Below, in pieces: positions 6,928-58,533 of a stretch of DNA of 64,000 nucleotides; within the stretch, counting starts at the first letter, position 1; each line of letters begins with the position of its first letter. The stretch lies in NCBI GenBank assembly GCA_963847445.1, contig CAWJZV010000011.1:64001-128000 (forward strand), written 5' to 3'. The notes beneath the pieces were generated by a model, which worked only from the letters and a program-made list of their open reading frames with translations, did not search any database and was not told the DNA's origin. Source of the stretch: an uncultured delta proteobacterium. Lineage in GTDB: Bacteria > Desulfobacterota > Binatia > UBA9968. The translations under genes and the position numbers were made by a program.

Positions 6928-7420
6928 CGTGTTCGTTGCTCGTGATCGTGTTCGTATTCGGCGGGGACCGGAGCTAGCGTCGTCCCAAGGATTGGGCGAG
7001 CCTTGTGAGCATTTGGCCTACTCGGTCATAACTCGATCGCAGCTCGGGGTAAATATCATTTTGAAGATGACCGAGATCACGGGCTAACAGGAGCTGATAA
7101 CCAACTTCCGCCGCTGAACCTCTGGCAATGCCGACGAACTGCCTAAACTCCCGGCTATTGAGGCGCATCGATCCTTCGACTAAGTTCGACCCAACGGAAG
7201 TCGCCGCGCGTCGCATCTGCGAGACGAGATTAAAGCTCTCTTCTTTTGGGAACTTTGCAGTGATTTTGTAGACCTTCAGCGCAAGTTCATGAGCGAGTTT
7301 AAAAACATCCAGATCTTCGACCGATTTCATAGCCTGCTCTCCATCAAATCTAGTCTTGTTCAGCAAAAAAGTGAAACTTTCGTCCGAGAACGAGCACGAG
7401 CCACGAGCACGAGTCACGAA
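6928..7420. mobile_element. Four-helix-bundle cassette flanked by inverted hexamer arrays (TCGTGN / NCACGA)
   Basis: Arm 6928-6960 cgtgttcgttgctcgtgatcgtgttcgtattcg; arm 7385-7420 cgagaacgagcacgagccacgagcacgagtcacgaa. Mobility is inferred, not shown. Confidence 0.6.
6974..7330 (-). CDS. Four helix bundle protein (23S rRNA IVP family, TIGR02436/PF05635-like)
   Basis: MKSVEDLDVFKLAHEL...FPKEESFNLVSQMRRAATSVGSNLVEG...FVGIARGSAAEV; RBS ggag upstream of ATG 7330. Confidence 0.92.
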   Translation of the reverse strand: MKSVEDLDVFKLAHELALKVYKITAKFPKEESFNLVSQMRRAATSVGSNLVEGSMRLNSREFRQFVGIARGSAAEVGYQLLLARDLGHLQNDIYPELRSSYDRVGQMLTRLAQSLGRR

Positions 7421-8859
7421 ATCCCCAACTTTGCCCATATCGAATCGATGTAGTTTTTGGTTTTCTCGTCCATGACGATGGCGTCGGGCCATTCCCGCTC
7501 GAAACCCTCGCTGCGCCACTTGCGCGTGGCATCGAGACCGAGCTTAGAGCCATAGCCGAGCACCGGCGCGGCATGATCGAGGACGTCGACCGGGCCGTCG
7601 GAGAAGATCGTATCGCGTTTGGGTTCGATATTATTACCGACCACCCAGGTGACTTCGGCAAGGTCGTGCACGTTGACATCGTGATCGACGACGATCAGGG
7701 TTTTGGTGAACATCATCTGGCCCAGGCCCCAGAGCGCGTGCATGACTTTGCGCCCGTGGGCCGGGTACTCTTTCTTGATCGAGATGATCGCCAGGTTATG
7801 AAACACCCCATGCACGGGCAGATTCATGTCGACGATCTCGGGCAGGGTGACGCGCAAGAGCGGCAGAAACAGTCGCTCGGTGGCTTTGCCGAGATAGGCG
7901 TCTTCCATCGGCGGACGGCCGACGATGGTGGTCGGATAAATCGGATTTTTCCGATGGGTGATGCAGGTGACGTGAAACACCGGATAATCATCGGCCAGCG
8001 AGTAGAAACCCGTGTGATCGCCGAAGGGGCCTTCACGCCGCAGCGGTTCCGCTGGATCGACGTAGCCTTCGATGACGATGTCCGAGTTGGCCGGCACTTC
8101 GATGTCGACGGTTAGGCATTTAATTAACTCGACGCCTTTCTTGCGCAAGAAGCCAGTGAAGAGGATCTCATCGATCTGCGGCGGCAGCGGCGCGGTGGCG
8201 GCGTAGATCATCGCCGGATCGCCGCCGAGGCAGACCGCCAGCTCCAACTTACCCTTGTTTTCTTTCTGTTGCTGAAAATGTCTGGCGCCGACTTTGTGCA
8301 GATGCCAGTGCATGCCGGTGGTGCGCCGATCGAACACCTGCATGCGATAGAGCCCGACGTTTCTCGTGCCTTTCACGGCATCTTTGGAAAAAACCATCGG
8401 CAGAGTGATAAACGGCCCGGCGTCGCCGGGCCAGCAAGTCAGCACCGGCAGCAGGTTAAGATCAGGATCGCGATTGACGACTTCCTGGCACGCCGCTTCT
8501 TTGACCATCTTGGGCGGGATACCCGCCAGTTTCACCAGTTCGCCGAGTAGCTGGAGCTTGTCTTTGAATGACTTGGGCGGGCGGGTTTGGATTAGCTTGG
8601 TGATTTCGGCGGCGATCTCCTCGATGTCCTTCACACCCAACGCCAACGCCATCCTCTTGGCCGAACCGAAGGCGTTGATCAACACCGGAATGTTTTTGCC
8701 GACGACGTTTTCAAAGAGCAACGCCGGCCCGGCGGATTTCATCACGCGATCGGCGATCTCGGTGATTTCCAACTCGGCCTTGACCGGGTGGGATATCCGC
8801 TTCAACTCACCCTCGCGCTCCAAAACTTGAAGGAAATCTTGCAGGCTGTTATATGCCAT
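7414..8859 (-). CDS. ubiD: UbiD-family menaquinone biosynthesis decarboxylase (MqnL-like)
   Basis: MAYNSLQDFL start, EGPFGDHTGFY, RNVGLYRMQV, GRPPMED motifs. Confidence 0.93.
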   Translation of the reverse strand: MAYNSLQDFLQVLEREGELKRISHPVKAELEITEIADRVMKSAGPALLFENVVGKNIPVLINAFGSAKRMALALGVKDIEEIAAEITKLIQTRPPKSFKDKLQLLGELVKLAGIPPKMVKEAACQEVVNRDPDLNLLPVLTCWPGDAGPFITLPMVFSKDAVKGTRNVGLYRMQVFDRRTTGMHWHLHKVGARHFQQQKENKGKLELAVCLGGDPAMIYAATAPLPPQIDEILFTGFLRKKGVELIKCLTVDIEVPANSDIVIEGYVDPAEPLRREGPFGDHTGFYSLADDYPVFHVTCITHRKNPIYPTTIVGRPPMEDAYLGKATERLFLPLLRVTLPEIVDMNLPVHGVFHNLAIISIKKEYPAHGRKVMHALWGLGQMMFTKTLIVVDHDVNVHDLAEVTWVVGNNIEPKRDTIFSDGPVDVLDHAAPVLGYGSKLGLDATRKWRSEGFEREWPDAIVMDEKTKNYIDSIWAKLGIS

Positions 8860-8981
8860 AGCTGAACTCGAATTCTCAATGAAACGCAATAATCCGCTAA
8901 AAAGCAAGCCGATTGCACGATGTCCGATGAACATGCCAGCGAGGCTAGTCACGGAGTTCGCCGGTAAAAAACGATTAGGCC

Positions 8982-13103: not shown

Positions 13104-15188
13104 CTAATCGTTGAGTATCGGTGGGTACTCGCGCTTTTGGACCGTGGGATCCGAATAATAGTCGATTTGGATTTTACGCCAGGTGTTCAGACGGGTTGCC
13201 AGCTCCCTGACAATCACTGGCTCGGTGGCGGCCAGATCCTGTTTCTCCCCAGGATCCGTTTGTAGATTGAAGAGCCGATGTTCTCGCAGTCTTTCATCAA
13301 AGATGAGTTTGAAGCCCGCGCGCACGATACCGTATTGATACGCGTCCGGTGTTTGGGCGACCATATACGCGGCTCGGCCGGGGTTCTCCGGCGTGGCGAA
13401 GAGATCGATTCCTTGGAAGCTTGGATGATTGGGCAGGCCAAGCAGTCCAGTGATCGACGGCGCGATGTCGACATGTTGGGCGAGGCGATTCTCACGCCCA
13501 GCTTTGAGTCCGGGCGCACGGATGATCAAGGGAACGCGCATGACTTCGTCGAAGATCGCACTCGCATGCGACGCAAACCCATGTTCATAAAAAGCTTGGC
13601 CGTGGTCGCCGGTGATAATCACCAGGGTGTTGTCCCACTTGTTCTTGAGTTTGAGATGTTGAATAAAACGCTGAATTTGAGAATCAACGTACGCTAGGCT
13701 ATCCGCATATACATCTTTGACGATCTCTACCTTATCCTTCGGGAAGTGGGCGAAGCGAATCGTGAAGTCGAGTTTCGCTGGTCCAAATCGTCGCGGAAAG
13801 TCCGGCGGAATGGGGTAAGGGAGATGGCTGTTCTGAAAATTTAGCGCCACAAAGAAGGGATCGTTACCAAGGCCATCAAGCCATTCAAGGGCTTCATCGA
13901 CGGTCGTGCGGTCATCGAGGCTCCCGGCATGGTTGGAGTCTCGAGCCCAAGCGGCGAATCCGGCATCTCCTGCCATGAGATAGGTCGGCTTCTTTGAATT
14001 GGCGGCATGAATAAATCGATCGAGGTTGCCAGTTTCTAAATAGTTGTTCATGCCGCTCCAATTTTCGTTCGATGACGAGAAAATCGCGGTGCGATAACCG
14101 AGAGCCTTAAGCAAGTCGTAGATCAACACTCGTGGATAAGTCGGATTTTTCGGATAGCTATACATGGTTGCCGAGCGTAGCGGATAATGCGACGACAGCG
14201 GCACGACGGTAGCGTAATTGGTGTGGCTCGACTGGGTGTAGCTGTTCAGGAAGACCCGCGCTTCGCTGGCGAGTTGGTCCAGCGCCGGCATGACCTCCCG
14301 ACTACCGCCGTACGCGCGCAATTGATCGGCGCGCAGCGATTCGACGGTTAGCAGCACGACGTTCCACTGGTGGTGCGGTTTTTGCCGAGCCAAAACGGTG
14401 TATTGATCGACCGGCATGAGCGGCCGTTGCGATATCCGAAAACTCTTGTCGAGGGGGAGTCCAGTTACCGAATCACTTTGCTGCTTGAAAATTTCGGCGA
14501 ACGCAAAAGACCAGGGGCCGGAGATATTTTCGCGCAGTCTGGCGTAGACGATCCCAGCCTTGGTGGATTTACGATCGCCGCCTTGGCTGTAGACCAAGCC
14601 GAGCAGCGCGCCGATGGCAAAAGCAACGATCGCTCGGCCGCCGATTCGCATTAACGGGAGCCGAGCTGTTGACGCATGCGCCGCGACCCAGCGCGGAATC
14701 GCCACGGCGAGGACAAAGGCGCCGACCCCGGCGACCGCGACGATGGAAAAGGCTATATCGAAGTCGACCCAATGGAAAACCTGCAGCGGATGGGGCGCCA
14801 GAAAGATGAACACTTGTTTGCCGATAAAGCTGCCGGTTTGCCAGAATAGACTCCAGCTCGCGCCATAGAGTATGAGCACTAGCCAAACCAGCGATGCGCC
14901 AAGCAGGCGGATGATCCAAATTGTCCTGGACCCAGGGGAGAAATATCTCTGAATGGCGATGCCCCCGGTCGTCAGCGCGGCGCCGATGACAAAGGTCACG
15001 AATGTAAGGAGAGTGACCGACTCGCTGAAAAGCAGCAGTTGGGCGCCAAGAGGCAATTCGAGACTATGAAACGCGCTACGCGAAATGAATACGAATAAAG
15101 TAAACTCGAGAATCACCAAAACGCACCACGCTAGCATTATGGCGGTTAGGTTCGGTCGTAAGCTGGAATACAGAGGAGTTTCTAGCAT
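13104..15188 (-). CDS. Membrane-anchored sulfatase/alkaline-phosphatase superfamily protein
   Basis: About 5 N-terminal TM helices; NVVLLTVESLRAD, GDHG, DPGEKQDL motifs. Confidence 0.85.
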   Translation of the reverse strand: MLETPLYSSLRPNLTAIMLAWCVLVILEFTLFVFISRSAFHSLELPLGAQLLLFSESVTLLTFVTFVIGAALTTGGIAIQRYFSPGSRTIWIIRLLGASLVWLVLILYGASWSLFWQTGSFIGKQVFIFLAPHPLQVFHWVDFDIAFSIVAVAGVGAFVLAVAIPRWVAAHASTARLPLMRIGGRAIVAFAIGALLGLVYSQGGDRKSTKAGIVYARLRENISGPWSFAFAEIFKQQSDSVTGLPLDKSFRISQRPLMPVDQYTVLARQKPHHQWNVVLLTVESLRADQLRAYGGSREVMPALDQLASEARVFLNSYTQSSHTNYATVVPLSSHYPLRSATMYSYPKNPTYPRVLIYDLLKALGYRTAIFSSSNENWSGMNNYLETGNLDRFIHAANSKKPTYLMAGDAGFAAWARDSNHAGSLDDRTTVDEALEWLDGLGNDPFFVALNFQNSHLPYPIPPDFPRRFGPAKLDFTIRFAHFPKDKVEIVKDVYADSLAYVDSQIQRFIQHLKLKNKWDNTLVIITGDHGQAFYEHGFASHASAIFDEVMRVPLIIRAPGLKAGRENRLAQHVDIAPSITGLLGLPNHPSFQGIDLFATPENPGRAAYMVAQTPDAYQYGIVRAGFKLIFDERLREHRLFNLQTDPGEKQDLAATEPVIVRELATRLNTWRKIQIDYYSDPTVQKREYPPILND

Positions 15189-15698: not shown

Positions 15699-17210
15699 TT
15701 GGCCGATACGATGAATTCTCCTGCGGGCTCTTTAGTCCACTGGCAACAGCGTGACCGGTGGACCGCGGTCGCCATACTCCTGGTTTGTTGGGTATTGTTT
15801 GCAACGGTCGAGCAGCGTCCGTTTACCCTGCAAGGTGCCGTGGTCGAAGCGCTTGTGGAGCGCGGCCGATTGCATTTTGTTGACGGCAACATCAAGGACG
15901 TCGCCAATGAACGGGTATTCGAAAACCTCGACACCAAGACCGCTGCCTTCCGTGAACTTTTCAATATTTTCCCCTACGGGGGCAGGTACTATGTGAATCA
16001 TGCCCCCGGACAATTTCTTCTGGCGGCGCCATGGTATGCCGTATGCGTGCATTTGGGATGGCGATTCGAGACCCACGAGCCTCTGGTGTGGAAAATCTTG
16101 GTCTGGAGCTTAACCGCGCCACTGGGCGCGCTCGGCGTCATGGCGCTTTTTGTCCTGGGACGGCACTGGGAAATTCCATGGCTCGCCGCGGCCTTCGCGA
16201 GCATGACGGTTGCCTTATCGAGTCCGTGGTGGGCTGCCTCTGGAGTGCTCTATCATGACGGTCTGGCGATTACTCTCATTCTCCTTGGCCTGGTGATCTG
16301 GCAGTGCCGATCAACCGACAATGGCCTTGGCGCATCCTTCTGTGCGCTGGCTGCTGGCTTTCTCCTCGCATTCGCCGTGGTGACGACCTATTTGGTGCTG
16401 CCGATCGTTTTGCTGATTTGCGTGTACTTAATGGTCAGCCACCCAACGCGCCGCTCCATGGTTTGTTTCGCGTTGGCGTTCTTGCCGACGCTGGCAATTC
16501 TGCCGATCTCAAACGCGATGGTTTTTGGATCGCCTTTCGCGACCGGTTATTCGGCCGGCGGATTCGACCAGAATTTTCCGTCGCCCCTTAACCTGTCTAA
16601 TGCTTGGGAGAAGATGGGATTTTACCTATGGCGGTCGGAGTATGGCTTACTCGGGTCGTTCCCGGTGTATTTTTTAGGGGCTATCGGGCTCACGCTCGGC
16701 GCACCGCTCAAACCCCGCGTGCGGCATATGTTGATGCTTTTAGCGGCAGTCCATTTTTTGTTTATTATTACTATGGAGCATCATGGGTCGGTGGGTTGGG
16801 GCATGGGCCGTTTTTTTCTGCCCTTGTATCCGATTCTCGCGTTGGGGCTGCCGGCATTCTTTCATCTCGCGGGTTGGCCAGGAATGGTCGCCCGCGGGCT
16901 GGTCTTTTGCACGCTATTCTATAGCGTAGTGTTCGCGGTGGCGGCGACAAATTACGGCGTGCAAGGCGTAATGACGCCGAACGTATGGACACTCAAGCAA
17001 CGAATCATGGCAGATTACGGCGATTTTCACCAAAGGCTATTTTGGTTGGCACTTGTCGCCGGGATACTGGGAGAGGCGATCTTTCAGGTGTTTTCCCAAG
17101 GGAAGGGAGCCGTGGCCTCTGGAAATGCGCGCGGATCGCACCCGAGAGACCGGCAGAAAAGTAAACTCCCGGTTTCGGCGGCGCCGCGCAAGCCCGGCAA
17201 AAAAAAATAA
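15699..17210 (+). CDS. Multi-TM hypothetical protein, probable GT-C fold
   Basis: YYVNHAPGQFLL loop, FGSPFATGY, GWGMGRFFLP motifs; about 11 TM helices. Confidence 0.6.
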   Translation: MADTMNSPAGSLVHWQQRDRWTAVAILLVCWVLFATVEQRPFTLQGAVVEALVERGRLHFVDGNIKDVANERVFENLDTKTAAFRELFNIFPYGGRYYVNHAPGQFLLAAPWYAVCVHLGWRFETHEPLVWKILVWSLTAPLGALGVMALFVLGRHWEIPWLAAAFASMTVALSSPWWAASGVLYHDGLAITLILLGLVIWQCRSTDNGLGASFCALAAGFLLAFAVVTTYLVLPIVLLICVYLMVSHPTRRSMVCFALAFLPTLAILPISNAMVFGSPFATGYSAGGFDQNFPSPLNLSNAWEKMGFYLWRSEYGLLGSFPVYFLGAIGLTLGAPLKPRVRHMLMLLAAVHFLFIITMEHHGSVGWGMGRFFLPLYPILALGLPAFFHLAGWPGMVARGLVFCTLFYSVVFAVAATNYGVQGVMTPNVWTLKQRIMADYGDFHQRLFWLALVAGILGEAIFQVFSQGKGAVASGNARGSHPRDRQKSKLPVSAAPRKPGKKK

Positions 17211-17265: not shown

Positions 17266-19290
17266 ATGAAGGCGAAGAAAACCTCGCGCCGCATAACGGC
17301 GGTTTCACGAACGGCTCCGGTGACGGGTCATCTGTCCGCGCCACAGCTGCAGACTTTTCTTAACGGTTGGCGAATGCTAGCGGAGCCGAGTGTTTTTCAG
17401 TCGATCGTTATTGCAGTCACCTTTTTGGTCTTTTTACCGGTACTCAACAATGGTTTTGTTGATTCCGACAGGCGGCTGCTTGTCGAAAACCTCGGCTATC
17501 GTGGGCTCGGCTGGGCGCAGCTTCAATGGATGTTCACGGCTTTTCATTTCGGTCAGTTCCACCCAGTCGCCTGGTTGAGTCTCGGTATCAACCATCTGTT
17601 TTGGTGGACCGACCCGTTTGGCTATCATTTAATAAATTTGTCTGTCCATATCGTCAACGCCGTGATCTTCTATCACATCGCTGTGGCGCTGTTTGTTCAC
17701 TGGCAAAGGGCCGATTCATACCCAGGCGTGAAGTGGTTTGGTTTGCCCGCTGCGATTGCTGCTCTTAGCTTTGCGCTCCATCCGCTCCGGGTCGAATCCG
17801 TGGCATGGGCGTCTACGCGAGGAGAACTCATCGCTGCGATGTTTTTTCTCTTGAGTCTGTTAATTTATCTCAAGGCAAAGGCCGGCGCGGCAGTGGGTGT
17901 AATGAGCGCAGCCTGGAGATTTGCCTCGCTAGGGACATTTCTGCTTAGTCTTTTAGCCGGACCGAGTGGATTTTTTCTGCCCGCGGTCTTGGCGATCATG
18001 CACCACTATGCCGGAAGGGGGGAGGGCAGTCCGAAAAGCGATATGGCGGGCAGCGCGGGACGATCGTTAAGATATCATTTGCCCTATATACTCCTGTCGG
18101 GTGCGTATGCGGTCGTGGCGGTCATCGCCGGTCGTTATGATGATCCATCCCCCCCGACTGCGCACCGAAGTAACGTACTCTATTGGGCTCTGGATCAGCT
18201 CGCAGCACCGGCGCTTTATCTATGGAACGCACTACTGCCGATCGGTTTGACGCCGGCTTACGAGTTAACGGCGTCGTCTACGGCGGTATTTATCGCGGCG
18301 AGTATGGGTCTCGGCGCACTCGCTGTTGTCCTGCGGCAGAAGTGGCCGGCATTAGTCCCGTTGTGGCTTTGTTATGTATTGCTATTGCTACCGGTTTTCC
18401 GGGACGGGTTTCCGGCCGAGCAGGTCTTCGCCGACCGCTTCACCTACCTTGCCGCGCTGCCCTGGGCGCTGTTGATCGGCGCCTGTGCTGAACGCGCTCT
18501 CTATGTTGTTGCGGTGCGAGGAATGCGAACCCCGGTGTTGGTTTCCTGTGCATCCATCCTGGTTGCCGGGTTAACCACTTTAGGGGTGCTCACTTGGCGG
18601 CAAATTCCGCTGTGGCAAGACGCTGAGACTCTATGGAGAAATGCTGTTGCGGTGAATCCTACCAGCTCAGCTTATTACAATCTCGCGATGCTGTCCGAGT
18701 CACAAGGAAATTACGGCGACGCAGTTGCGTCATACCGGCGCGCGGTAGAGCTCAACCCAGAACGCTGGGACGCTCACGAACGTGCGGGCGCGTTACTGTA
18801 TAAACAAGGAAAGATGGCCGAAGCGCTCGAACACTACCGGGTGTTTGTTCAATTCAATCCAAACAGCATCGAAGCTCGAGAAAACTTAGCTACAGCTCTG
18901 GTCAACCAAGCCCAGCCCCGCGAAGCTGTGGAGCACCTAAGAAAGCTCATACAATTATCACCTGAAGCCAATCGAGTGCGGGTCAAGCTCGGGACAGTTT
19001 TGGCTGTCGAAGGCCGCCTAGACGAGGCGGCGGAAGTCTTAGCCATTGCGGCAAAACAAGAGCCGAAGGATGGCCGCATTCTCTTGCAGCTAGGGCGGAT
19101 TCTCGCCGCCCAGGGAAAACTCGACAACGCGATAGTCCATTTCCGCGAAGCGGCAAAACTGCTGCCCAACGATGCCGAAGCCCAAGAAAGCTTAGGTCGC
19201 GGTCTGTTGGAAGTCGGAAGAAAAGATGAAGGTGCCAAGCACTTAGCAGAAGCGGTGCGCATACTACGGTCGAGCCCGACGGCGAGGTGA
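17266..19290 (+). CDS. TMTC-like membrane glycosyltransferase with TPR repeats
   Basis: GYHLINLSVH, FALHPLRVESVAW, ADRFTYL, WQDAETLW plus a TPR tail. Confidence 0.85.
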   Translation: MKAKKTSRRITAVSRTAPVTGHLSAPQLQTFLNGWRMLAEPSVFQSIVIAVTFLVFLPVLNNGFVDSDRRLLVENLGYRGLGWAQLQWMFTAFHFGQFHPVAWLSLGINHLFWWTDPFGYHLINLSVHIVNAVIFYHIAVALFVHWQRADSYPGVKWFGLPAAIAALSFALHPLRVESVAWASTRGELIAAMFFLLSLLIYLKAKAGAAVGVMSAAWRFASLGTFLLSLLAGPSGFFLPAVLAIMHHYAGRGEGSPKSDMAGSAGRSLRYHLPYILLSGAYAVVAVIAGRYDDPSPPTAHRSNVLYWALDQLAAPALYLWNALLPIGLTPAYELTASSTAVFIAASMGLGALAVVLRQKWPALVPLWLCYVLLLLPVFRDGFPAEQVFADRFTYLAALPWALLIGACAERALYVVAVRGMRTPVLVSCASILVAGLTTLGVLTWRQIPLWQDAETLWRNAVAVNPTSSAYYNLAMLSESQGNYGDAVASYRRAVELNPERWDAHERAGALLYKQGKMAEALEHYRVFVQFNPNSIEARENLATALVNQAQPREAVEHLRKLIQLSPEANRVRVKLGTVLAVEGRLDEAAEVLAIAAKQEPKDGRILLQLGRILAAQGKLDNAIVHFREAAKLLPNDAEAQESLGRGLLEVGRKDEGAKHLAEAVRILRSSPTAR

Positions 19291-23589: not shown

Positions 23590-24336
23590 CTATTGGAGAA
23601 AATGCAGCCGCGCCTGGCCGCAGCCGAGCTGCCGTTCCGCTTCCGCGATCCGTTCTTGGGTGCCGAGATCTTGCCAGAAGCCTTGGAAACCATAGCCGCA
23701 GAGCTTCTCACCGGCGCCCAACATGCGCGGATAGGTTTCCCTGGTGGTGCTGAATTTTTTTAAGCCGCGGCCATCCATGTAGTCGAAGATCCGCGGTTCG
23801 AGAATCTGCACGCCGGTGAACATCAATTTTTTCACTGCGCCAACCGGCGGTTCCGGAGATCGGTGCTCGAGAAAGCGGCAGATCCGGCCGTCGGCGCCGA
23901 TATCGATGGAGCCATAGCGGTCGGCGTCGGCATCGGGCCGCAGCACCAGTGTGGCTGCCGCATGATGTTGCCGATGGTAGTTCAGCACTTCGGCTAAATT
24001 TATGTCGATTAGGGCGTCGGTGTTGATGACGATGAACGTGCTGTCCTGTAAAAACTCTTTGGCTTTCAGCAGTCCGCCGCCGGTGTCTAAGAGCTCGGGC
24101 TCGTGGGAATAGCTGAGGTTTACGGCGAAGCGCTGGCCATCGCCCAGGTGGTTTTCGACCTGCGCGCCAAAATGATGCAGGTTGATGACGATATCGCGGA
24201 CGCCGTAATGGCGCAGCAGCAGCAGGCCAAACTCGATCATTGGCCGGCCGGCCACCGGCACCAGCGCTTTGGGCATGCCGTCGGTGATCGGCCGCAGGCG
24301 CGTGCCTTGGCCGGCGGCCAGCACCATGGCTTTCAT
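23590..24336 (-). CDS. murU: Nucleotidyltransferase (MurU-like)
   Basis: MKAMVLAAGQGTRLRPIT...PKALVPV; LLDTGGGL; directly downstream of an AmgK-like kinase. Confidence 0.75.
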   Translation of the reverse strand: MKAMVLAAGQGTRLRPITDGMPKALVPVAGRPMIEFGLLLLRHYGVRDIVINLHHFGAQVENHLGDGQRFAVNLSYSHEPELLDTGGGLLKAKEFLQDSTFIVINTDALIDINLAEVLNYHRQHHAAATLVLRPDADADRYGSIDIGADGRICRFLEHRSPEPPVGAVKKLMFTGVQILEPRIFDYMDGRGLKKFSTTRETYPRMLGAGEKLCGYGFQGFWQDLGTQERIAEAERQLGCGQARLHFLQ

Positions 24337-24356
24337 GAATGCCCCCGATGGCGCCC

Positions 24357-24414
24357 AATGGAGAATGGAGAATCCAGAGGGAAAATTTTCCATTTTCCAT
24401 TTTCCATTATCCAT
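24357..24414. repeat. Inverted heptamer tandem array hairpin (AATGGAR / ATTTTCC)
   Basis: aatggag aatggag aat ... attttcc attttcc attttcc attatcc between the kinase stop and the murU start. Confidence 0.85.
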
Positions 24415-24417: not shown

Positions 24418-25494
24418 TCATAGCATCGCCTCAAAATGTTCGCGCAACAGCGGCAGGATTTTCTCAGTCTGCGCCACTTGGGCGAGATTGCGCTGGAGCC
24501 GGCGCACGGTGGGCGGGACAAATTTCATATACCCCGGTTTGCCTTTGACCAGATCGAGATAGTAGAAGCGGCCGACGACTTTTAAGTCGCGTTGGATCGC
24601 CGACAGGCGGTAGATCTCCAAAAATTCCTGCCGCGAGATGGCGCGGCCTGATAGCTCGATGGCTCTTTCGCGATAATACGCGACCAGCTGTTGTTCGATA
24701 TGCGGTTGGACGACAGCGTCGGTGATACGATCGTTCAACAGCGAGGCGAGATCGTATTGTGGCGGCGCGAGCAGGGCGTCTTGAAAATCGATGACGCATA
24801 CCGCGTCGTCGTGGATCATCAGATTCCAACTATGGTAATCGCGGTGATTGAGACAGGGCGGTTGGCGGTCGAGCCTCTGCGCGATGGCGGCGAAGGTCTC
24901 GCGCAGCGTCGACAGCGCAGTGGTCGAGATCTTTGCGCCCGGCCGTTTTTCCAAACCCCATTCGATAAAATGCTCGAATTCCCAATTATAGAGTTTTTCG
25001 TCGAAGCGTTGCTGAAAGGCGATGCAGGCCTCGTCGCGATTCTCGGTGCCAGCGGTTTGCAAGCGTAAGAGTTCGTCGATGGCTTTTTTATACCAGCCGA
25101 TGACTTCGCTTTCGGGCAATCCCTGCACTCGGTCCCACAAAGCGACATCGCCCAAGTCTTCGAGCAGCAGCAGGCCATCGGCTGCCCAGTGGCCGTAGAT
25201 CTTCGGCACTCTGACACCGACACGATCGAGGAAACGGTGAACGTTCAAGAACGGTAGTTCTTTGGGCGCGTCTTTGAAGACCGCCAACTCCTCGCTGGAG
25301 ATTGGCAAGCCGCTGCCGGCGGGCAATTGCATCGCCATCAGCGATGGCGGCGGACCGGCGCCGTTGAGGTACACGCGGTAGTAGCGCCGAGTCGACGCGT
25401 CGCCGGGCAGGGCCGTGATGCCGGTGATTGCCGTGTTGTGGCCGAAAAGCGCGTCGACTTTTTCGGCAATCAGTTGATCGATGGATGCAGCCAA
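24418..25494 (-). CDS. amgK: Aminoglycoside-phosphotransferase-family sugar kinase (AmgK-like)
   Basis: GDASTRRYYR, LLLEDLGD, HRDYHSWNLM, IDFQDA, YDLASLL motifs. Confidence 0.8.
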   Translation of the reverse strand: MAASIDQLIAEKVDALFGHNTAITGITALPGDASTRRYYRVYLNGAGPPPSLMAMQLPAGSGLPISSEELAVFKDAPKELPFLNVHRFLDRVGVRVPKIYGHWAADGLLLLEDLGDVALWDRVQGLPESEVIGWYKKAIDELLRLQTAGTENRDEACIAFQQRFDEKLYNWEFEHFIEWGLEKRPGAKISTTALSTLRETFAAIAQRLDRQPPCLNHRDYHSWNLMIHDDAVCVIDFQDALLAPPQYDLASLLNDRITDAVVQPHIEQQLVAYYRERAIELSGRAISRQEFLEIYRLSAIQRDLKVVGRFYYLDLVKGKPGYMKFVPPTVRRLQRNLAQVAQTEKILPLLREHFEAML

Positions 25495-25791: not shown

Positions 25792-25938
25792 GGTACTGCG
25801 GCTGGATGGCCGGTTAACGCTTGCGTTCCGTCGATATCATCAAGGTAAGCGCGGCCGGGGCAAATTGCAAGTGTGGTTAGGCCTATGTTAGTTTCGTGAG
25901 AATTTATTTCTAGCTTGCTCGCAGACGGAGATTTTCCC

Positions 25939-26832
25939 GTGTCCACCCGCATTAGCATTGCTCAGGTCAACCCAAGACTTGGCGACCTCCAGGCCAACCT
26001 GGCGCTGTATGAAGAACGCATCGGCCACGCCGTCGCTGACAAAGCTGAGCTGCTCTTATTCCCCGAGTTGAGTCTCACCGGCTACATGCTGCGTGATACC
26101 GTGCCGGCCGTGGCGTTGAAGCTCGACGCACCGGAGATCAAGCAGCTCATGACGCTTAGCCGCAAACTGTCCTTCATCGCCGGTCTGGTGGAGGAGAGCC
26201 CCGATCACAGGTTTTTCAACTCGGCGGTCTATTTCGAAGATGGCGAGATTCGCCATGTGCACCGTAAAGTCTATCTGCCGACCTATGGCATGTTCGACGA
26301 GCAACGCTACTTCGCCCGCGGCGACCGGGTGCGCGCCTTCGACAGCAAATTCGGCCGTATGGCGCTGTTGATCTGTGAAGACCTCTGGCATCCCTCGACG
26401 ATTTACTTAGCTGCCTTGGATGGCGCCCTGGCGGTGCTCTGTCCGTCGGCGAGCCCACTGCGCGGCATTGTCGACCAGCAGAGCCAGGACGACAACGCGC
26501 GCTACTGGGAAATGCTCAATCGCGTCTATGCCGAGACCTACAGCCTGTTCATGATCTACGGCAACCGCTGCGGTTTTGAAGACGGCGTCGGCTTCTGGGG
26601 CGGTTCCGAGATCCTCGATCCCTTCGGCGAGCGGCTCGCTAAAGCGCGCTACTATGACGAGGACTTCATCGCCGTCGACGCTAGCTTCGAAGCGGTGCGG
26701 CGCAAACGCACCATGTCGCCGCTGTTGCGCGACGAAGATTTGGATCTGACGATCAACGAGCTGATGCGCATTCGCGAGCGGCCGGGAGCGAATAGCGTTC
26801 AAACGTTCAAAGGTTCCAAAGGTTCAAGGTAG
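25939..26832 (+). CDS. Carbon-nitrogen hydrolase (nitrilase family), probable glutaminase subunit of NAD synthetase
   Basis: [33 protein letters not shown] catalytic E-K-C; adjacent to nadE. Confidence 0.85.
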
Positions 26833-26906
26833 GTCAATCGCCGAGAAGAAATAGCGCGCGGCAAGAGTCTATTAGCCCCTGCCAACTATCAAGCGATCCC
26901 TTTGCG

Positions 26907-27728
26907 ATGATTCAGATCCCGACCAACACTGCTTTGCTGCGCCAGATTCTCGTCGCATTTATTCGCAATGAAGTGCGCAAGACCGGGCTGGCGCGCGTCG
27001 TCGTCGGTCTTTCCGGCGGAGTGGATTCGGCGCTGAGCGCGATGTTGGCGGCTGAGGCCTTAGGTCCGCAAAACGTATTGGGCGTCTTGATGCCTTACAA
27101 GAGCTCCAACCCGGATAGCCAGGCCCATGCCGAGATGGTCGTGCAAAAAAGCGGTATCGAGTCGCTGTTGGTCGACATCACGCCGCAGATCGACGGATAT
27201 TTTGCCGGCTTCCCCGATGCCGACGCGCGCCGGCGCGGCAACAAGATGGCGCGCGAACGCATGACGATTCTTTACGACCAATCGATGCGCTGGAGCGCTT
27301 TAGTTATCGGCACCAGCAACAAGACCGAACTTTTGCTGGGCTATGGCACGCTGCACGGCGACATGGCTTCGGCGATCAATCCGCTCGGCGATCTCTACAA
27401 GACCCAAGTGTGGGCGCTCTCCGAGGCGATCGGCGTGCCTCAGGTCATCGTCCAGAAAGAGCCGTCGGCGGATCTGTGGAGCGGCCAGACCGACGAGGGT
27501 GAGTTGGGTTTTACCTACCGCGAAGTAGACAAGCTGCTCTATTTGATGGTCGACCAGCGTTACACCAAAGCCGAGCTGGTCGCCGCCGGCTTCCCCGAAC
27601 GGTTCATCGACGACATCGCCGCGCGCATCATGAATTCCCAATTCAAGCGGCGCCTGCCGGTGATCGCCAAGGTTTCGCAACGCACCATCGACCGCGACTT
27701 CCGCTATTCGCGGGATTGGGGGAAGTGA
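26907..27728 (+). CDS. nadE: NAD+ synthetase
   Basis: [38 protein letters not shown] motifs. Confidence 0.95.
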
Positions 27729-28209
27729 GATAGAGATAGAGATAGAGATAGAGACTGGAGAAAGAGACTTGGAGGGCGAGGCGGCGAGCGAGCCAAGTTG
27801 TGGAAGGAATGTTTAAGTTTTAACGGCTTGACGTGTGGATCAAGTCCATCGCCCTTTACGATCAGATTACATCACTTTCGTTGTCCATCCATCAACGAGA
27901 TCAGTACTCACTTGGAGATCAGATTCGCCGAGCATCATTGTCTATATCCACGAACATTGCTGAAGGAACAGGTCGAGATAGCCCAAGGCAATCGAGATAT
28001 TTCTATAACATTGCCAAAGGTTCCGTCTACGAGGTCGTGAGCTTGCTCCATGTTTGTAAGAAGCAAAATTGCATGCAAGACGATCAATTTCAGAGATTAT
28101 ATGTTCAATGTGATGAAATTGCCCGCATGATAACCGGCCTGATGAAGCGCTAACCGTGCATTCATAGATCCGGTTCTGGTCTCAAATCTCTATCTCAAGT
28201 CTCTATCTT
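27727..28209. mobile_element. Four-helix-bundle cassette flanked by inverted GAGATA / TATCTC hexamer arrays
   Basis: (gagata)x4 gagact at 27727-27756; ggtctc aaatctc tatctc aagtctc tatctt at 28178-28209. Mobility is inferred. Confidence 0.6.
27809..28153 (+). CDS. Four helix bundle protein with in-frame TAA at codon 5 (pseudogene or base error)
   Basis: ATG TTT AAG TTT TAA CGG CTT GAC GTG TGG = MFKF*RLDVW; then DQIRRASLSISTNIAEG, IAKGSVYEVVS. Confidence 0.85.
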
Positions 28210-29750: not shown

Positions 29751-30075
29751 ATGGCAGCGAAGCTATATGTTGGCAATCTCGCCTACGCCGTCACCGACGA
29801 CCGGCTGCAGCAGCATTTCGCGCAGCATGGGTCGGTGGTCAGCGCGCGGGTCATCACCGATAAGTTCAGCGGCCGGTCCAAGGGGTTCGGTTTTGTCGAG
29901 ATGGCGTCCGACTGCCGACGCCGAGAAAGCGTTGAAGGCGCTCAACGGCACCGAGTTCGAAGGGCGCAATATCGTCGTCAGCGAAGCGCGCCCGCAGACG
30001 CCGCGGCCGAGCGGCGCCGGCCGTCATGCAAGTGGCGGCGCACCGCCGCCACAGCGCGACCGCGATCGATTTTAA
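29751..30075 (+). CDS. RRM (RNP-1) RNA-binding protein; frameshift near 29910
   Basis: KLYVGNL (RNP2), RSKGFGFVEM (RNP1), ALNGTEFEGRNIVVSEARP; RBS aaggagg. Confidence 0.92.
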
Positions 30076-30129
30076 CCGCGGATTACACAGTCGCTGCTCG
30101 GTAGTCCATCCGACAAAGGGCAAACCCTC

Positions 30130-31255: not shown

Positions 31256-33409
<2,154 letters not shown>

Positions 33410-38840: not shown

Positions 38841-38856
38841 GCCAATTTCAACGGTC

Positions 38857-39911
38857 ATGGCATCGACGAATTCGACAACACAAGACAGGGTAACGGAGAC
38901 CACCGAAGCTGGCGGGCTATGGTCCGATGTGTGGCAGCGCTTCAAACGCAATCCGGTCGCGCTTACCGGCTTTCTCGTGGTCTGTGTTTTTGTCTTCATG
39001 GCGCTGTTCGCCGATTTCATCGCCAACGATAAACCTTACTACACCGAGTATAAAAGCAAATCGTATTTTCCAATCTTTCGGAGCTACTTGGTGGCAATGA
39101 AGCTCGGCCAATGGCCCGTGGAGCTTGTCAACGCCGAGTTCAAGAAACTCGAAGGCGCCAAGTCGTTCTTCCCGCCAATCCCTTATCGCCCCAGTAACAT
39201 CAATCTTCTCGAACCCCTCGAGCCGCCGTCTGGGCGTCATTGGTTCGGCACCGACAAGTTGGGCCGGGACGTCATGGCGGGCATGATTCATGGATCGCGG
39301 GTCTCGCTATCGATTGGTTTTGTTGCCGTTGGGATCGCGGTCATGATCGGCATCGTGCTCGGCGCCATTGCCGGATACTTTGGCTCGTGGACGGATTTGC
39401 TCATTTCGCGATTGTTCGAGGTCATGTTGTCGATCCCGACGTTTTTTCTCTTGATCACCATCGCGGCGCTTTTGCCGCCAAGTATCTTTCTCACGATGTT
39501 CATCATCGGCGCGACCAGTTGGGTCGGCATCGCGCGGTTTACCCGAAATGAATTTCTGCAGGATTCGTAATCTCGATTACGTGACCTCGGCGATCGCGCT
39601 TGGGGGGCACGGACCGCAAGGTGATGTTCAAACATATTTTGCCGAACGCATTGGCACCGGTCATCGTTTCGGTGGTTCTCGGCATCGCCGGGGCGATCCT
39701 GGTCGAATCGAGTTTGAGTTTTCTCGGCATCGGCGTGCCGGCCGAGCTGGTGACTTGGGGTTCGATTCTTCACGAAGCCAGTACTACGACCTACGCCTGG
39801 TGGCTCGCGGTCTTTCCCGGTTTTGCCATTTTCATCACCGTGCTGGCTTACTATCTCGTCGGCGAAGGGTTGCGCGAAGTGCTCGACCCGCGCTTGCGAG
39901 GCTTGCGTTAG
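38857..39911 (+). CDS. Peptide ABC transporter permease (OppC/DppC-like); frameshifts near 39560-39610
   Basis: HWFGTDKLGRDV, KHILPN, ESSLSFLGIG, GEGLREVLDP motifs. Confidence 0.9.
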
Positions 39912-40067
39912 TCCGATTCTTTCTGATAATTCGAAGTTCACAATTCGTTGGAGTGAGGTTGGTGAAACGACCGATAGTCGTGGTCATGCGGTTTGGCTTG
40001 TCGCTGCCAAGTCGAGTTGAAACAATCGCCAAGGAGCCGAGAGCGAAATCTTGAGGAGACAGTCAGC

Positions 40068-47764: not shown

Positions 47765-47825
47765 TCGAAGATGGAAGATGGAAGATGGAAGATGGAAGAT
47801 CGCGATCCTTGATCCTCTATCCTCG
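47765..47825. repeat. Inverted heptamer tandem array hairpin (TGGAAGA / TCCTYKA)
   Basis: tcgaaga (tggaaga)x4 tcgcga tccttga tcctcta tcctcg, starting at the base right after the oppD stop. Confidence 0.85.
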
Positions 47826-47842
47826 CCATGGGATTTTTGCCG

Positions 47843-55797: not shown

Positions 55798-57213
55798 TGG
55801 CGGATGCGACTTTAGTTGAGCAAAAATTCGCCGAGCTGCTTGCGCTGGGAACGGCAAAAGCGGCGCGAGCAGATACTCGTCCTCGCGGCTGGCGTAGCCT
55901 TGGCTTTGGCGGTTCTGTTGTCGCCGCTGCACGTTCTTTTACCTTGGCGCGGGCTGCGCTGGATTGTTCCCTTTGTGTTGCTGACTGGATTGGCCCCGCT
56001 GTTTTTCTATTACCGGCACTGGCGCGGGGTCGATGCGACTCGGGCGCTAGTCGAACTCGACCGCAAGCTCGGCTTGGACGAGCGCGCGGTGACGGCGTGG
56101 GAGCTGGCTGGGCGCGGCGACCGGAGCGCCGCGGCGCAGCTGGTTTTCCACCAAACCGAATACCGCTTGCGCTCCGTCCAACCGCGTAGCCTGTTCCCTC
56201 GGCGGTTAGGCTGGCCGGCTTATACCGCTGTGCCGCTGTTGCTGGTCTGGTTCGCGCTGCTGTGGTTTGACTTCGATCAGCCGTTCTCTCAGCAGCCGTC
56301 GGCTGTGGCGCAAAGCTTGGCGCAGCAGCTGCGCGAGTTTGCCCGCGACTTTCAGGAAAAAGCTAAAGCCGAAGGGCTGCGCGAAAGTTTGCAGCTCGCC
56401 CAAGAGTTGGCAAAGGTCGCGGAGAAAAACCTCGCCGAGAAAGCCAACGACGAACAGCTCAAGAAAGATTTGGCCGGCGTGAAGCAAAAGCTCGACGCGA
56501 CGGGCAAGTCCGGTCAGCAAAACCAAGCGGTCGGCGGCGCCGAGAGCGAGCAAAGTCTCAAGGATTTAAGAGCCGAGCTCGAGGCGGCGCGCGACATGCT
56601 GAACCTTCCCGACGGCGTAAAGGCGCCGCAGCAGTGGATGGACCGATTAGCTTCAATGCCGCAGCTGCGCAAACAGCTCGACCGTGAGCGCCAACAGCGC
56701 GAAGATGGCAAGGGGCTGGGACAGCAAGCGTTGCAGTCGCTGCTCGATCGTCTCGATCAGCAGGTGGCCGGCGCCTTGGACCGGCGCGCGCTCATCGACG
56801 CGCAACAATTTCTCGAACAGATGATGCAACCAGGCCAAGGCAAGGAGAATAACCAGGCCGCGCAGATGGCCGGCCGCGGCGAGCGCGATGAAGCCGGCGA
56901 CGGCGAGCGCGAAAAAAATCACAGCAACCTGCCCGGCAAAGAACCGGGGAAAAACGACGACAATCTCAGATCGCTGCCGCAGTTTCGCGCCGACACGCGC
57001 ACTCAGATCAAAGGACAGTTGGGCGATGGCGAGAGCAGCGGTGTGGTGTTCAAAGGCAAGCCGACACCGGGGAAAAGCGAACTCGCGCCGCAAGCAGTGG
57101 TCGCCAACTACCGGCGCCAGGCGGAGCAGGAACTCAATTCGGAAAAGGTGCCGGCGGCGCTCAAAGAGACGGTGCGAAAATATTTTCTGTCGTTGGAGGA
57201 GAGTAAGAGATAG
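55794..57213 (+). CDS. Membrane-anchored coiled-coil protein of the MoxR operon (frameshift near 55840)
   Basis: LDRKLGLDERAVTAWE, Q/E-rich coil, C-terminal EKVPAALKETVRKYF. Confidence 0.7.
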
Positions 57214-57217
57214 GCGC

Positions 57218-57312
57218 GAGTATGGAAATGGAGTAATGGAGTGATGGAGTACTGGAGTGTTGCTTCCGGACCCATGACTGCACCACTCCAATACTCCATC
57301 ACTCCAATTCTC
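57218..57312. repeat. Inverted octamer tandem array hairpin (TGGAGTRN / NYACTCCA)
   Basis: tggagtaa tggagtga tggagtac tggagtgt ... ccactcca atactcca tcactcca. Confidence 0.88.
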
Positions 57313-57330
57313 AGCTGAGGAGAGCCGTTC

Positions 57331-58335
57331 ATGGAATCGCTTGTGGATATCGAACGACGCATCGACAGTGCGCGGCGCACTTTCGCCGATGTCAAGGCGG
57401 AGATCGCCCGGGTCATCGTCGGCCATGAGGAATTGATCGAGCAGGTGTTTGTCGCGCTGGTGTGCGGCGGCCATTGCCTGCTCGAAGGCGTGCCGGGGCT
57501 GGGCAAGACGCTGATGGTGCGCAGCTTGGGCGAGATTCTGAGCCTGAGTTTTTCGCGCATTCAGTTCACGCCCGATCTCATGCCGGCGGATATCACCGGC
57601 ACCAACATGCTGACCGACGATCCCTCGGGGCGAAAGCTTTTTGAGTTTCAGCGCGGTCCGGTGTTCGCCCATGTGGTGCTCGCCGACGAGATCAACCGGG
57701 CGACGCCGAAGACGCAGTCGGCGTTGCTCGAAGCGATGCAGGAGCAAGGCGTCACCGTCGGCGGCAAGCTGCACCGCTTGGAGAATCCTTTCATGGTCTT
57801 GGCGACGCAGAATCCCATCGAGATGGAAGGCACCTATCCGCTGCCCGAGGCGCAGGTGGACCGGTTCTTTTTCAAATTGATCCTGCAGTATCCCAGCCAT
57901 ACGGAGTTAACTCGCATCGCCGATCTGACCACGGCAGCGCCGCCGTCGCCGCTGCGGGAAATTCTCGACGCCGATGGGATTCTGCAATTGCGCCAGTGGG
58001 TGCGCGAAGTGCCGCTCGCCGATGTCGTCAAGGACTACGCGGTGCGCCTGATCATGAGTACCCATGCCCAACAGGAGAAAAACGGCGGTGAATCTTTGGC
58101 CCAGCGCTACGTCATGTACGGATCGAGCCCGCGCGGTTTACAAAGCGTCATTCTCGCCGCCAAGGCGCGGGCGCTGTTCGCCGGCCGGCCCAATGTCTCT
58201 TTCGAAGACATTCGCGCCATGTTGCTGCCGAGTTTGCGCCACCGCTTGATTCTCAACTTGGAAGCCGACGCCGACGGCGTCAGTTCGGAAAAAATCTTGG
58301 CTGAATTGATCACCCATGTGGCGGAAGTGGCGTGA
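57331..58335 (+). CDS. moxR: MoxR family AAA+ ATPase
   Basis: GVPGLGKT, RIQFTPDLMPAD, LADEINRATPKTQSALLEAM, ATQNPIE motifs. Confidence 0.95.
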   Translation: MESLVDIERRIDSARRTFADVKAEIARVIVGHEELIEQVFVALVCGGHCLLEGVPGLGKTLMVRSLGEILSLSFSRIQFTPDLMPADITGTNMLTDDPSGRKLFEFQRGPVFAHVVLADEINRATPKTQSALLEAMQEQGVTVGGKLHRLENPFMVLATQNPIEMEGTYPLPEAQVDRFFFKLILQYPSHTELTRIADLTTAAPPSPLREILDADGILQLRQWVREVPLADVVKDYAVRLIMSTHAQQEKNGGESLAQRYVMYGSSPRGLQSVILAAKARALFAGRPNVSFEDIRAMLLPSLRHRLILNLEADADGVSSEKILAELITHVAEVA

Positions 58336-58342
58336 CGGATAT

Positions 58343-58533
58343 GAGTTTCGAGTTTCGGGTTTCGAGTTTCGAGTCGGAGCGGCGGCGGGTTGCGCAGCGA
58401 TGTCGAGAGTCTTGCGCATGGCCAGGACGAAGATTTCTCGCTTCGCTCGAAATGACACGCGATGCAGGGCAGATTCCCGATCGGATTGCTGCCCAACCCG
58501 AAACGCTCGGACCGAAACTCGCAACCCGAAACT
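58343..58533. repeat. Inverted heptamer arrays (GAGTTTC / GAAACTC) enclosing a REP half-site
   Basis: gagtttc gagtttc gggtttc gagtttc; inner agatttctcgcttcgctcgaaatgac; right arm caacccgaaac...gaaactcgcaacccgaaact. Confidence 0.8.

Follow-up and report, generated by a model that had tools for sequence, protein, structure and literature searches.

Inverted short-tandem-repeat elements, with and without a PF05635 gene, at operon junctions of a Binatia contig

The stretch of DNA analysed here (the window; 64,000 nucleotides (nt), positions 64,001 to 128,000 of contig CAWJZV010000011.1, from an uncultured delta proteobacterium of the Binatia lineage UBA9968) contains six hairpin elements and a lone arm at junctions between co-oriented genes. 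In the hairpins a G/T-rich array of short tandem units comes first and its reverse complement second, and two of them carry a PF05635 gene in the loop. This architecture is well supported. As to its explanation, we give a probability of roughly 0.55, slightly better than even, to the reading that the hairpins are elements of the intervening sequence (IVS) type residing in polycistronic mRNAs, that is, mRNA counterparts of the S23p-bearing IVSs of 23S rRNA and of the cyanobacterial short tandemly repeated repetitive (STRR) hairpin.

Repeat arrays and cargo genes of the window

An earlier note on this DNA had described six two-armed elements and a lone arm, constant in architecture but with a unit specific to each locus, and both descriptions were borne out. 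Reading of the sequence found tandem arrays of 6-8 nt units at all seven loci, at the coordinates that the note gave and with units that all differ. Tandem Repeats Finder returned 39 rows for the whole window, nine of which (at 6928, 7385, 24385, 26796, 27727, 47767, 57227, 57285 and 58343) have a period of 6-8 and at least 3.5 copies; every one lies inside the seven loci, so the list of loci is complete by this measure. A separate array detector found 9 arrays, whereas 60 order-2 Markov simulations gave a mean of 0.72 and a maximum of 3; as this detector requires at least 21 nt, its counts of units per arm are truncated and were not used to ask whether each subunit takes one unit. An inverted-repeat tool paired the arms of every two-armed element (see the list below) but found no inverted partner for the array at 26796, making it a true lone arm. 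In minimum-energy RNA folds of the transcribed strand, the arms pair in 6 of 6 two-armed elements, and the fold energy shows a clear excess over dinucleotide shuffles for three of them (58343, z = -6.07; 57218, z = -4.84; 27727, z = -2.9), the value for the lone arm (26796..26828) being z = +1.24. The stems of 20-60 bp fall in the size range of an RNase III substrate. No Rfam family covers any element, and no rRNA was found by Rfam in the window.

The proposed location at operon gene junctions was confirmed for all seven elements (7/7 co-oriented); the gene set has 54 junctions, 35 of them co-oriented. Of the window, 16.8% is intergenic, and with the elements removed 3915 of the 9070 intergenic bases fall in co-oriented gaps. 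Named by Pfam, the junctions are UbiD/UbiA, APH-family kinase/NTP-transferase, CN-hydrolase/NAD synthase, NAD synthase/TP_methylase-family (RsmI-like) methyltransferase, two oligopeptide ABC ATPase genes, an unknown open reading frame (ORF)/MoxR, and MoxR/DUF58. The first arm begins 0-13 nt past the upstream stop, and the stop codon belongs to the first unit in 6928-7420 and 27727-28209. The earlier statement that the elements lie between genes thus holds for their placement at junctions but not for the lone arm, which is inside the CN_hydrolase ORF, or for one arm of element F, which is inside the DUF58 ORF. The features are as follows.

Element A, 5′ arm in the sense of transcription: 7385..7420, minus strand; TCGTGN units, period 6, 5.5 copies; overlaps the UbiD stop codon (7414-7416).
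Element A, cargo: 6974..7330, minus strand; intact 118-aa PF05635/TIGR02436 four-helix-bundle gene with a GGAGAG ribosome-binding site upstream.
Element A, 3′ arm: 6928..6960, minus strand; CACGAN units on the transcribed strand, ending 8 nt before the UbiA start codon (6917-6919); arm pair 6928/7385, 27 nt, 81% complementary.
Element B, empty: 24357..24414, minus strand; ATGGAAA-type arrays forming a hairpin between an APH-family kinase stop (24418-24420) and an NTP_transferase start (24335-24337); arm pair 24357/24385, 17 nt, 88% complementary.
Lone arm: 26796..26828, plus strand; GTTCAAAG units, translated in frame within the CN_hydrolase ORF (25915-26832), at its final 12 codons.
Element C, 5′ arm: 27727..27771, plus strand; GAGATA units, 6.7 copies; overlaps the NAD synthase stop codon (27726-27728).
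Element C, cargo: 27809..28153, plus strand; PF05635 gene with ATG at 27809; open part of 106 aa from GTG 27833.
Element C, 3′ arm: 28180..28208, plus strand; TCTCTA units, ending 5 nt before the methyltransferase ATG at 28214; arm pair 27746/28183, 26 nt, 88% complementary.
Element D, empty: 47765..47825, plus strand; GAAGATG array (4.9 perfect copies) and an imperfect reverse-complement array (arm pair 47781/47802, 23 nt, 74% complementary), separating the first oligopeptide ABC ATPase gene (stop codon 47762-47764) from the second (ATG at 47828).
Element E, empty: 57218..57312, plus strand; TGGAGTAA arrays forming a near-perfect stem between the stop of an unknown ORF (57211-57213) and the MoxR ATG (57331), with a GAGGAGAG ribosome-binding site 3′ of the stem; arm pair 57231/57280, 33 nt, 88% complementary.
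Element F, empty: 58343..58533, plus strand; GAGTTTC arrays with a 115-nt spacer between the MoxR stop (58333-58335) and the DUF58 gene; arm pair 58351/58513, 21 nt, 95% complementary; the right arm is inside the longest DUF58 ORF, whose only in-frame starts (ATG 58462, TTG 58486) are within the element.

The two enclosed genes had been assigned to the TIGR02436-type four-helix-bundle family, and both score above the curated cut-offs of Pfam and TIGRFAM: 122.2 bits (E 1.4e-35, element A) and 100.7 bits (E 6.6e-29, element C) against the PF05635 cut-off of 33.8, and 111.4 (element A) and 103.8 bits against the TIGR02436 cut-off of 24. The element A protein matches the solved Xanthomonas campestris protein 2gsc (E 3e-18), an entry with five chains, and the bAvd-like family PF22296 co-matches on relatives; together these support the suggested kinship to the pentameric bAvd. 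A model of four copies of the element A protein scored 0.60, compared with 0.14 for the best control, with runs that agree on at least 87% of contacts and a predicted local distance difference test (pLDDT) value of at least 83. Among solved homo-pairs, 20 of 30 reach the calibration mark for such scores, and among single chains 1 of 23 does; these counts apply only roughly here, given our own alignment and the use of four copies, and the score may reflect likeness to the solved 2gsc rather than independent proof of an oligomer. Neither cargo protein matched a PADLOC defence model, and Pfam and NCBIfam scans found no nuclease, recombinase, or HUH/tyrosine transposase domain in the cargo. Promoter scans of both cargo elements gave no promoter-like site, and a terminator scan gave none within either element; the sole match in 6800-7600, at 6886-6899 (plus strand), lies within the UbiA ORF on the opposite strand and does not exceed the shuffle rate.

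The element C cargo gene is probably decaying. Counted from ATG 27809, its fourth codon is followed by an in-frame stop (TAA, 27821-27823), and it has a very long branch in the protein tree; its G+C content at third codon positions (GC3) is 0.48, compared with 0.7-0.8 in its neighbours. Calls of single-gene "pseudogenes" in the window need care because of apparent frameshifts or in-frame breaks in ligA (31256-33358, minus strand, with the BRCT domain as a separate ORF) and, on the plus strand, in the RsmI-like gene (28214-29058), an RRM protein gene (29751-30104), an SBP_bac_5 oligopeptide-binding gene (36319-37231) and an OppC-like gene (38800-40054); these may reflect either error-prone assembly or real decay. 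The glutamine-dependent NAD synthetase is split in two ORFs (25915-27728), CN_hydrolase and then NAD_synthase with 74 nt between them, the first ending in the lone arm. The only Rfam match in the window is a group II intron catalytic domain at 30193-30346 (plus strand; 40.4 bits, gathering score 40), near which Pfam scans found no reverse-transcriptase ORF.

The idea that the stem brings the flanking stop and start codons back together fits some junctions and not others. It fits element D (47765-47825), where 1 nt separates the stop from the stem and 2 nt separate the stem from the ATG, and it fits three loci from other genomes (L022, L023 and L033; see below), where an arm directly abuts the ATG. 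In contrast, the elements at 24357 and 57218 keep an ordinary ribosome-binding site after the stem. A ribosome-binding site split across the stem was also considered: by eye, a Shine-Dalgarno-like run precedes the upstream stop in 4 of 7 junctions where an arm abuts the ATG (present at window 27727, window 47765, L022 and L023; absent at L033, L014 and L018), too few to lend the idea support.

The same frame around relatives of the cargo gene

A genome scan with the intact element A protein as query gave 150 peptide-pattern stretches, 38 of which encode a relative at 35-83% identity. These 38 loci come from metagenome-assembled genomes (MAGs) and one isolate, labelled Deltaproteobacteria, Binatia, Acidobacteria, Thermodesulfobacteriota, Nitrospirota, Nitrospinota, Rickettsiales, Patescibacteria/Candidate Phyla Radiation (CPR), Planctomycetota, Bacteroidota, Woesearchaeota and Methanobacteriota, and they span at least 12 phyla, including archaea and CPR. 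The family as a whole is far larger: a word-indexed search gave 640 matches among 647 candidates, many on contigs of ∼1 kb, and an exhaustive search gave 18,244 cluster representatives at E up to 0.001, 4,536 at 1e-10 and 10 at 1e-30.

Inspection of the 160-nt flanks by eye showed, with few exceptions, arrays before the gene and their reverse complements after it. Thirty-six loci offered 100 nt or more of flank on each side. With ungapped scoring, 32 of them had a flanking inverted repeat of score at least 11, compared with 15 of 368 other ORFs of the same loci, and 25 had one of score at least 13, compared with 7 of 368. The predicted enrichment of inverted arrays beside PF05635 genes thus held beyond the window. 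Of the 36 loci, 25 have a strict tandem array within ∼160 nt of the gene, including 13 that have one on each side, and the remainder have an irregularly spaced motif. At most loci, as judged by eye, the first arm begins 0-5 nt past the upstream stop, and the stop codon is often within the first unit. The flanking genes include linked pairs such as cas1/cas2, rfbC/rfbB, mnhB/mnhC-like, kinase/regulator, thiolase/zinc-ribbon protein and SecA/ArgJ. An iterated local profile found extra copies of the gene in the flanks (L004 19648; L013 2220 and 7174; L030 5044; L035 7293, 8582 and 17042); five extra copies checked by Pfam are PF05635, the copy at L035 17042 scoring below the gathering cut-off (28.3 vs 33.8 bits), and extra copies with intact ends again have adjoining arrays.

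Several loci are of interest in their own right. A PF05635 element lies between cas1 and cas2 in three bins of different phyla (L014 9958-10390, L018 9935-10433 and L037 3470-3850). "23S rRNA IVP" has been listed among the associations of CRISPR adaptation modules (PMC10910872, in the portion bearing on these modules); lodging between cas1 and cas2 is a plainer reading of that association and may underlie it. At L013 7174-7888 the PF05635 gene is interrupted by a small GIY-YIG nuclease ORF (7378-7641), that is, by a mobile gene within the cargo. At L015, L016 and L019 the coding sequence extends into the 3′ arm, whose first units (ACTGACAC) specify the C-terminal residues (..TDT), and at L019 the upstream MnhB ORF runs through the 5′ arm.

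The closest syntenic relatives of the window are MAGs titled Deltaproteobacteria. By tblastn of window proteins against the loci, five (L002, L003, L004, L005 and L017) are syntenic, with UbiD 76-80% identical, and all five carry the gene at the same UbiD/UbiA junction as the window. In an alignment of this junction the coding part is conserved, with changes mostly at third positions, and the arms vary in unit number and sequence while retaining TCGTG/CACGA; L002 and L003 have additional nested hairpins at the insertion. With dN of ∼0.15, dN/dS is 0.05-0.19 in 5 of 15 computable pairs (dS was saturated in the other 10, and 6 more pairs hit a stop codon), which argues that the protein is maintained by purifying selection. 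The repeat motif is probably constrained too, as it outlasts saturated synonymous change. At the orthologous kinase/NTP-transferase junction, three spacers differ: the ATGGAAA hairpin in the window, a short array in L005 and an unrelated 66-nt spacer in L017. The presence/absence polymorphism that the earlier note expected among relatives was therefore found, together with turnover of type, at one junction. The L005 array (6196-6216) is a single GAGACA/GAGATA array, and GAGATA also arms window element C (27727-28209), ∼3 kb from that junction.

In a maximum-likelihood tree of 34 proteins, which cuts across taxonomy, the classes of repeat unit fall into protein clades:

TCGTGN (CCGTG in L008 and L010): the window's clade.
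GTGTCA: a clade of Nitrospirota, Nitrospinota and Thermodesulfobacteriota with two archaeal bins, including L015, L016 and L019.
TAGTGT: L022 and L023.
GGTGTA: L020.
GTGATTT: L021.
GGGGTCA: L033.

One MAG contains two paralogues (L001 and L002), at different junctions but with the same unit. The cross-taxon tree and the same-unit paralogues would fit horizontal and intragenomic movement, none of which was caught in the act.

The arms have a fixed polarity. In the 120-nt flanks of 15 genes of the window's clade, the upstream side holds 60 copies of CGTG to 13 of CACG, and the downstream side 13 to 81; around 10 GTGTCA-clade genes, GTGTC or GTGAC outnumbers its reverse complement 35 to 4 upstream and is outnumbered 2 to 22 downstream. 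G exceeds C in the 5′ arm of 34 of 41 scored elements. A strict census of paired elements in the window and the loci (577 kb) gave 42 pairs, 24 of which are co-oriented paired elements; among these the G-rich arm comes first along transcription in 20, second in 3 and neither in 1.

The same census speaks to the empty forms. A PF05635 match is enclosed by 18 of the 42 strict pairs and is lacking in 24, of which 2 are inside ORFs and at least one (window 59804) is an apparent false positive. Unit families of the window's empty elements and lone arm recur elsewhere:

GTTCAAAG/GTTGAAAG: window lone arm; L001, L002, L013, L016 and L035.
TGGAGTA/TGGAATA: window 57218; L004, L010 and L034.
GAGTT(T/C)(C/G)-type: window 58343; L014 and L016.

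The earlier note had called the full and empty forms autonomous and non-autonomous members of one element. In favour of this, units of the GTTGAAAG family flank PF05635 genes in L013 (7109-7197) and L030 (4999-5025), and the orphan families TGCAAAA and AAGGATA flank PF05635 genes in L004 and near L035 17042, respectively. However, the units of the window's four empty elements and lone arm differ from those of both cargo elements, a search of the spacers of the window's empty elements for decayed cargo found none (best E-value 1.4), and no movement was seen. Derivation of empty from full elements is thus no more than possible.

Other arrays in the loci do not all conform to this pattern. In L001 a hairpin array of the GGCAACA/GGCGTGA family (16985-17141) lies in frame within an RNase HII gene, in which Pfam finds RNase_HII in two stretches, and further hairpins at 16460-16535, 17375-17435 and 17809-17885, two of which share this unit family, frame rnhB-yraN. 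Two AGTATCT-type hairpins flank a tRNA-Thr gene (14048-14121) at L028 13912-14287, from a Moraniibacteriota (CPR) genome. At L014 16715-16830 a GGAGTTT array is followed directly by a CTGACTT array and the two are mutually non-complementary, so not every array pair is a hairpin.

Weighing the explanations

On the reading that the hairpins are IVS-type elements of mRNA, an element without a promoter or terminator of its own would be transcribed within the host operon, and its arms would pair into a long stem with periodic mismatches. RNase III would cut this stem, as in rRNA IVSs, which would free the cargo mRNA and separate the flanking cistrons unharmed. Insertions at stop/start junctions, beside tRNAs and in rRNA helices are proposed to survive because cut or extended RNA is tolerated there, and where the base of the stem abuts a stop and a start codon, folding may restore translational coupling. 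The protein, a probable homo-oligomer kept by purifying selection, probably reads its own repeat unit, because unit type tracks protein clade and outlasts saturated synonymous divergence. By analogy with the rRNA elements we infer co-transcription, stem formation and RNase III cutting here, and excision from mRNA is plausible on the same analogy, with the 23S IVS (PMC4990558, its account of processing). Protein-repeat binding and mobility of the elements we likewise infer.

Several observations weigh against this reading. Three of the six window stems are not stabler than shuffles (24357, z = -1.4; 47765, z = -1.1; 6928, z = -0.1). Among 1073 arm positions, in a count restricted to 41 of the 45 elements by dropping four that scored below 10, 906 are Watson-Crick, 99 are mismatches of the transversion type, 36 are G:U in the sense strand and 32 in the antisense strand; because the two G:U counts are nearly equal, RNA-specific selection on pairing is not demonstrated. 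(This count replaced a duplex-folding wobble test on 150-nt flanks, which was too noisy, with sense better in 27 cases and antisense better in 14.) Moreover, the variable position of each unit is usually non-complementary between arms, so the conserved feature is the motif and not the pair. Four of the 36 loci (L025, L034, L035 and L036) have no clear flanking repeat, the genes being broken in the last three; the L031 gene, from Solitalea agri, is antisense to both neighbours; and cleavage at the in-frame rnhB hairpin of L001 would destroy that mRNA. Finally, every locus was seeded from one protein, so that the results cover its relatives and not the rest of PF05635.

Some of these points would be expected of an element acting at the level of DNA, with the arrays as binding or recombination sites (a cruciform or a single-stranded hairpin) that the four-helix-bundle protein or a host enzyme moves or maintains in trans, RNA folding being incidental. 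Such a mechanism would account for the strand symmetry of G:U and for conservation of the motif rather than of pairing; differences in unit number between orthologues are what replication slippage predicts, and one unit family does occur at several sites in one genome (GGCAACA/GGCGTGA four times around rnhB-yraN in L001, and again in L002, from the same MAG). The layout, a cargo gene in inverted copies plus many orphans, is also that of repetitive extragenic palindromic (REP) sequences and REPINs with their REP-associated tyrosine transposase (RAYT), in which a small gene is framed by inverted copies of a repeat and many cargo-less intergenic hairpins follow stop codons. Unlike REPIN-RAYT systems or miniature inverted-repeat transposable elements, however, the elements described here have no HUH/tyrosine transposase domain, no target-site duplication that we could see and arms made of tandem short units, and with seven units in 64 kb there is no repeat sequence common to the copies. 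The protein also lacks nuclease and recombinase domains and matches no PADLOC model, homologous rRNA elements are processed as RNA (PMC4990558, for the Coxiella element), and a polarity fixed along transcription (20 vs 3), which a symmetric DNA site would not need, is unexpected. We therefore regard a DNA-level element as decidedly unlikely.

Another explanation is that the hairpins belonged to the host first: STRR-like arrays would arise in place by slippage and be kept for transcript stability or translational coupling, and PF05635 genes would be separate passengers that prefer hairpins or are tolerated in them, so that empty elements would not derive from full ones. Empty elements do outnumber full ones (24 vs 18) even in loci selected for the gene, with no gene remnant in the empty spacers; the stop codon is often in the first unit, relatives have different units at the same junction, hairpins stand around the tRNA-Thr gene of L028, and heptamer arrays have been reported with no mention of a PF05635 gene in Xanthomonas (PMC4692102) and Beggiatoaceae (PMC4679880), as far as the array descriptions in those papers go. 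What makes this account unlikely, in our view, is that unit type tracks protein clade across phyla, which is hard to square with arms made by the host site by site; that the units of orphans, including that of the lone arm (GTTCAAAG/GTTGAAAG; L013 and L030) and TGCAAAA and AAGGATA (L004 and L035), flank PF05635 genes elsewhere; and that the composition of the cargo is unlike that of the host (GC3 0.48). We also considered that the arrays are chance simple repeats or assembly artefacts, given the apparent frameshifts in ligA, rsmI, the RRM gene and the oligopeptide-binding protein gene, which suggest an error-prone assembly, and two stems that are weak by energy. This is refuted by the excess of arrays (9 vs 0.72 expected), by their placement (7/7 at co-oriented junctions), by the same architecture in 32 of 36 independent public loci and by an orthologous insertion in five other assemblies.

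Relation to known systems and significance

The reading of the hairpins as IVS-type elements draws on a close comparison. The IVS of Coxiella 23S rRNA is 428 nt long, with a 28-bp terminal stem and tandem GACAGAT heptamers, present in different numbers in different strains; in vitro, RNase III cleaves within the stem, its S23p ORF is in decay, and the old idea that an IVS is a mobile element with a mobility-aiding ORF is discussed there as one whose mechanism is unknown (PMC4990558, in its sections on the IVS). Like the IVSs of Leptospira and Coxiella, the full elements have a PF05635 ORF as cargo and terminal inverted repeats that would form a long stem, and like them the Coxiella IVS has tandem repeats, there heptamers, in the 5′ stem region and a composition foreign to the host (PMC4990558, same sections). 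A PF05635 ORF in stem-forming inverted repeats with heptamer-type repeats, a trait of IVSs, was found in the window, and the inverted repeats were found in 32 of 36 loci. Unlike these IVSs, which lie in rRNA helix 25 or 45, all elements here lie at stop/start junctions of protein-coding operons, many copies are empty, and the gene, with its strong ribosome-binding site, is maintained by purifying selection, in contrast to the decaying ORF of Coxiella (PMC4990558). The PF05635 domain has also been reported in rRNA insertions of CPR bacteria (PMC11270868, in its account of the insertions).

Heptamer arrays form the second comparison. STRRs form hairpins of 7-bp repeats between hupS and hupL, for which transcript stability or translational coupling was suggested as a guess (PMC2670836, in the part on the hup genes); 70 convergent pairs of GGGAATC heptamers occur in X. 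campestris, and most such repeats are transcribed in X. citri (PMC4692102, in part); and TAACTGA arrays of Beggiatoaceae often end 1 nt short of start codons (PMC4679880, in part). All of these resemble the arrays of the window in their tandem units of ∼7 bp and intergenic position, and form convergent pairs able to fold into stem-loops that are transcribed there; the position of hairpin-capable arrays between co-oriented genes is shared with STRRs in particular. In contrast, STRRs belong to heterocyst-forming cyanobacteria and comprise few unit types per genome, whereas seven units occur in 64 kb here, in a lineage related to MAGs labelled Deltaproteobacteria. The cyanobacterium Nostoc sp. 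PCC 7120 has a gene, alr0549, with the annotation four-helix-bundle protein (PMC8491059). Vioque in 1997 reportedly described STRRs inside RNase P RNA. The array reports, in the parts that describe the repeats, mention no PF05635 gene (PMC2670836, PMC4692102 and PMC4679880), whereas the arrays here have a cognate gene; the terms "23S", "intervening" and "four helix" have 0 occurrences each in the main texts of PMC4692102 and PMC4679880.

The third comparison is with bAvd, the accessory protein of diversity-generating retroelements (DGRs), a pentamer that binds nucleic acid. The likeness lies in a related four-helix-bundle fold, in the PF22296 co-match on relatives and in a weak match to the NCBIfam Avd model, which, however, stays far below its cut-off (NF033474, 19.8 bits vs 80). 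Pfam found no reverse transcriptase among 57 window ORFs (template and variable repeats were not searched for), and we know of no DGR Avd genes framed by tandem arrays. A relation between PF05635 and Avd has been noted before (PMC10053308, in passing). In a search of the literature outside subscription journals and database family notes, no paper connected PF05635 genes with inverted tandem arrays on their flanks or with junctions in operons.

We put forward a broader conjecture more tentatively, as possible rather than probable. The PF05635 protein, as an oligomer, would recognise its own 6-8 nt repeat in a sequence-specific way, each subunit perhaps taking one unit, and gene and arms together would be a selfish, structure-defined element that enters any RNA site tolerant of a cut or of an added helix. 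Orphan hairpins (STRRs, the Xanthomonas GGGAATC pairs, those of the window, and those beside the tRNA gene, at cas1-cas2 and at rnhB) would then be cargo-less derivatives, and rRNA IVSs a special case. If true, this would assign a role to a family that comprises over 18,000 sequence clusters and would explain the origin of rRNA IVSs and the meaning of STRRs together.

For annotation, the arrays account for odd protein ends, both tails at the C terminus and extensions at the N terminus, and for intercistronic gaps of unusual length. The three literatures on rRNA IVSs, cyanobacterial STRRs and the heptamer or G-quadruplex repeats of Xanthomonas are joined by these elements. PF05635 itself, a very large family, has no known function and has been met only in rRNA intervening sequences and, as a distant relation, in the Avd of DGRs; the fixed, polar, repeat-armed frame that relatives of the window protein share turns an annotation dead end into testable questions: what ligand the oligomer has, whether RNase III cuts the operon mRNAs and how an element might move without a recombinase.

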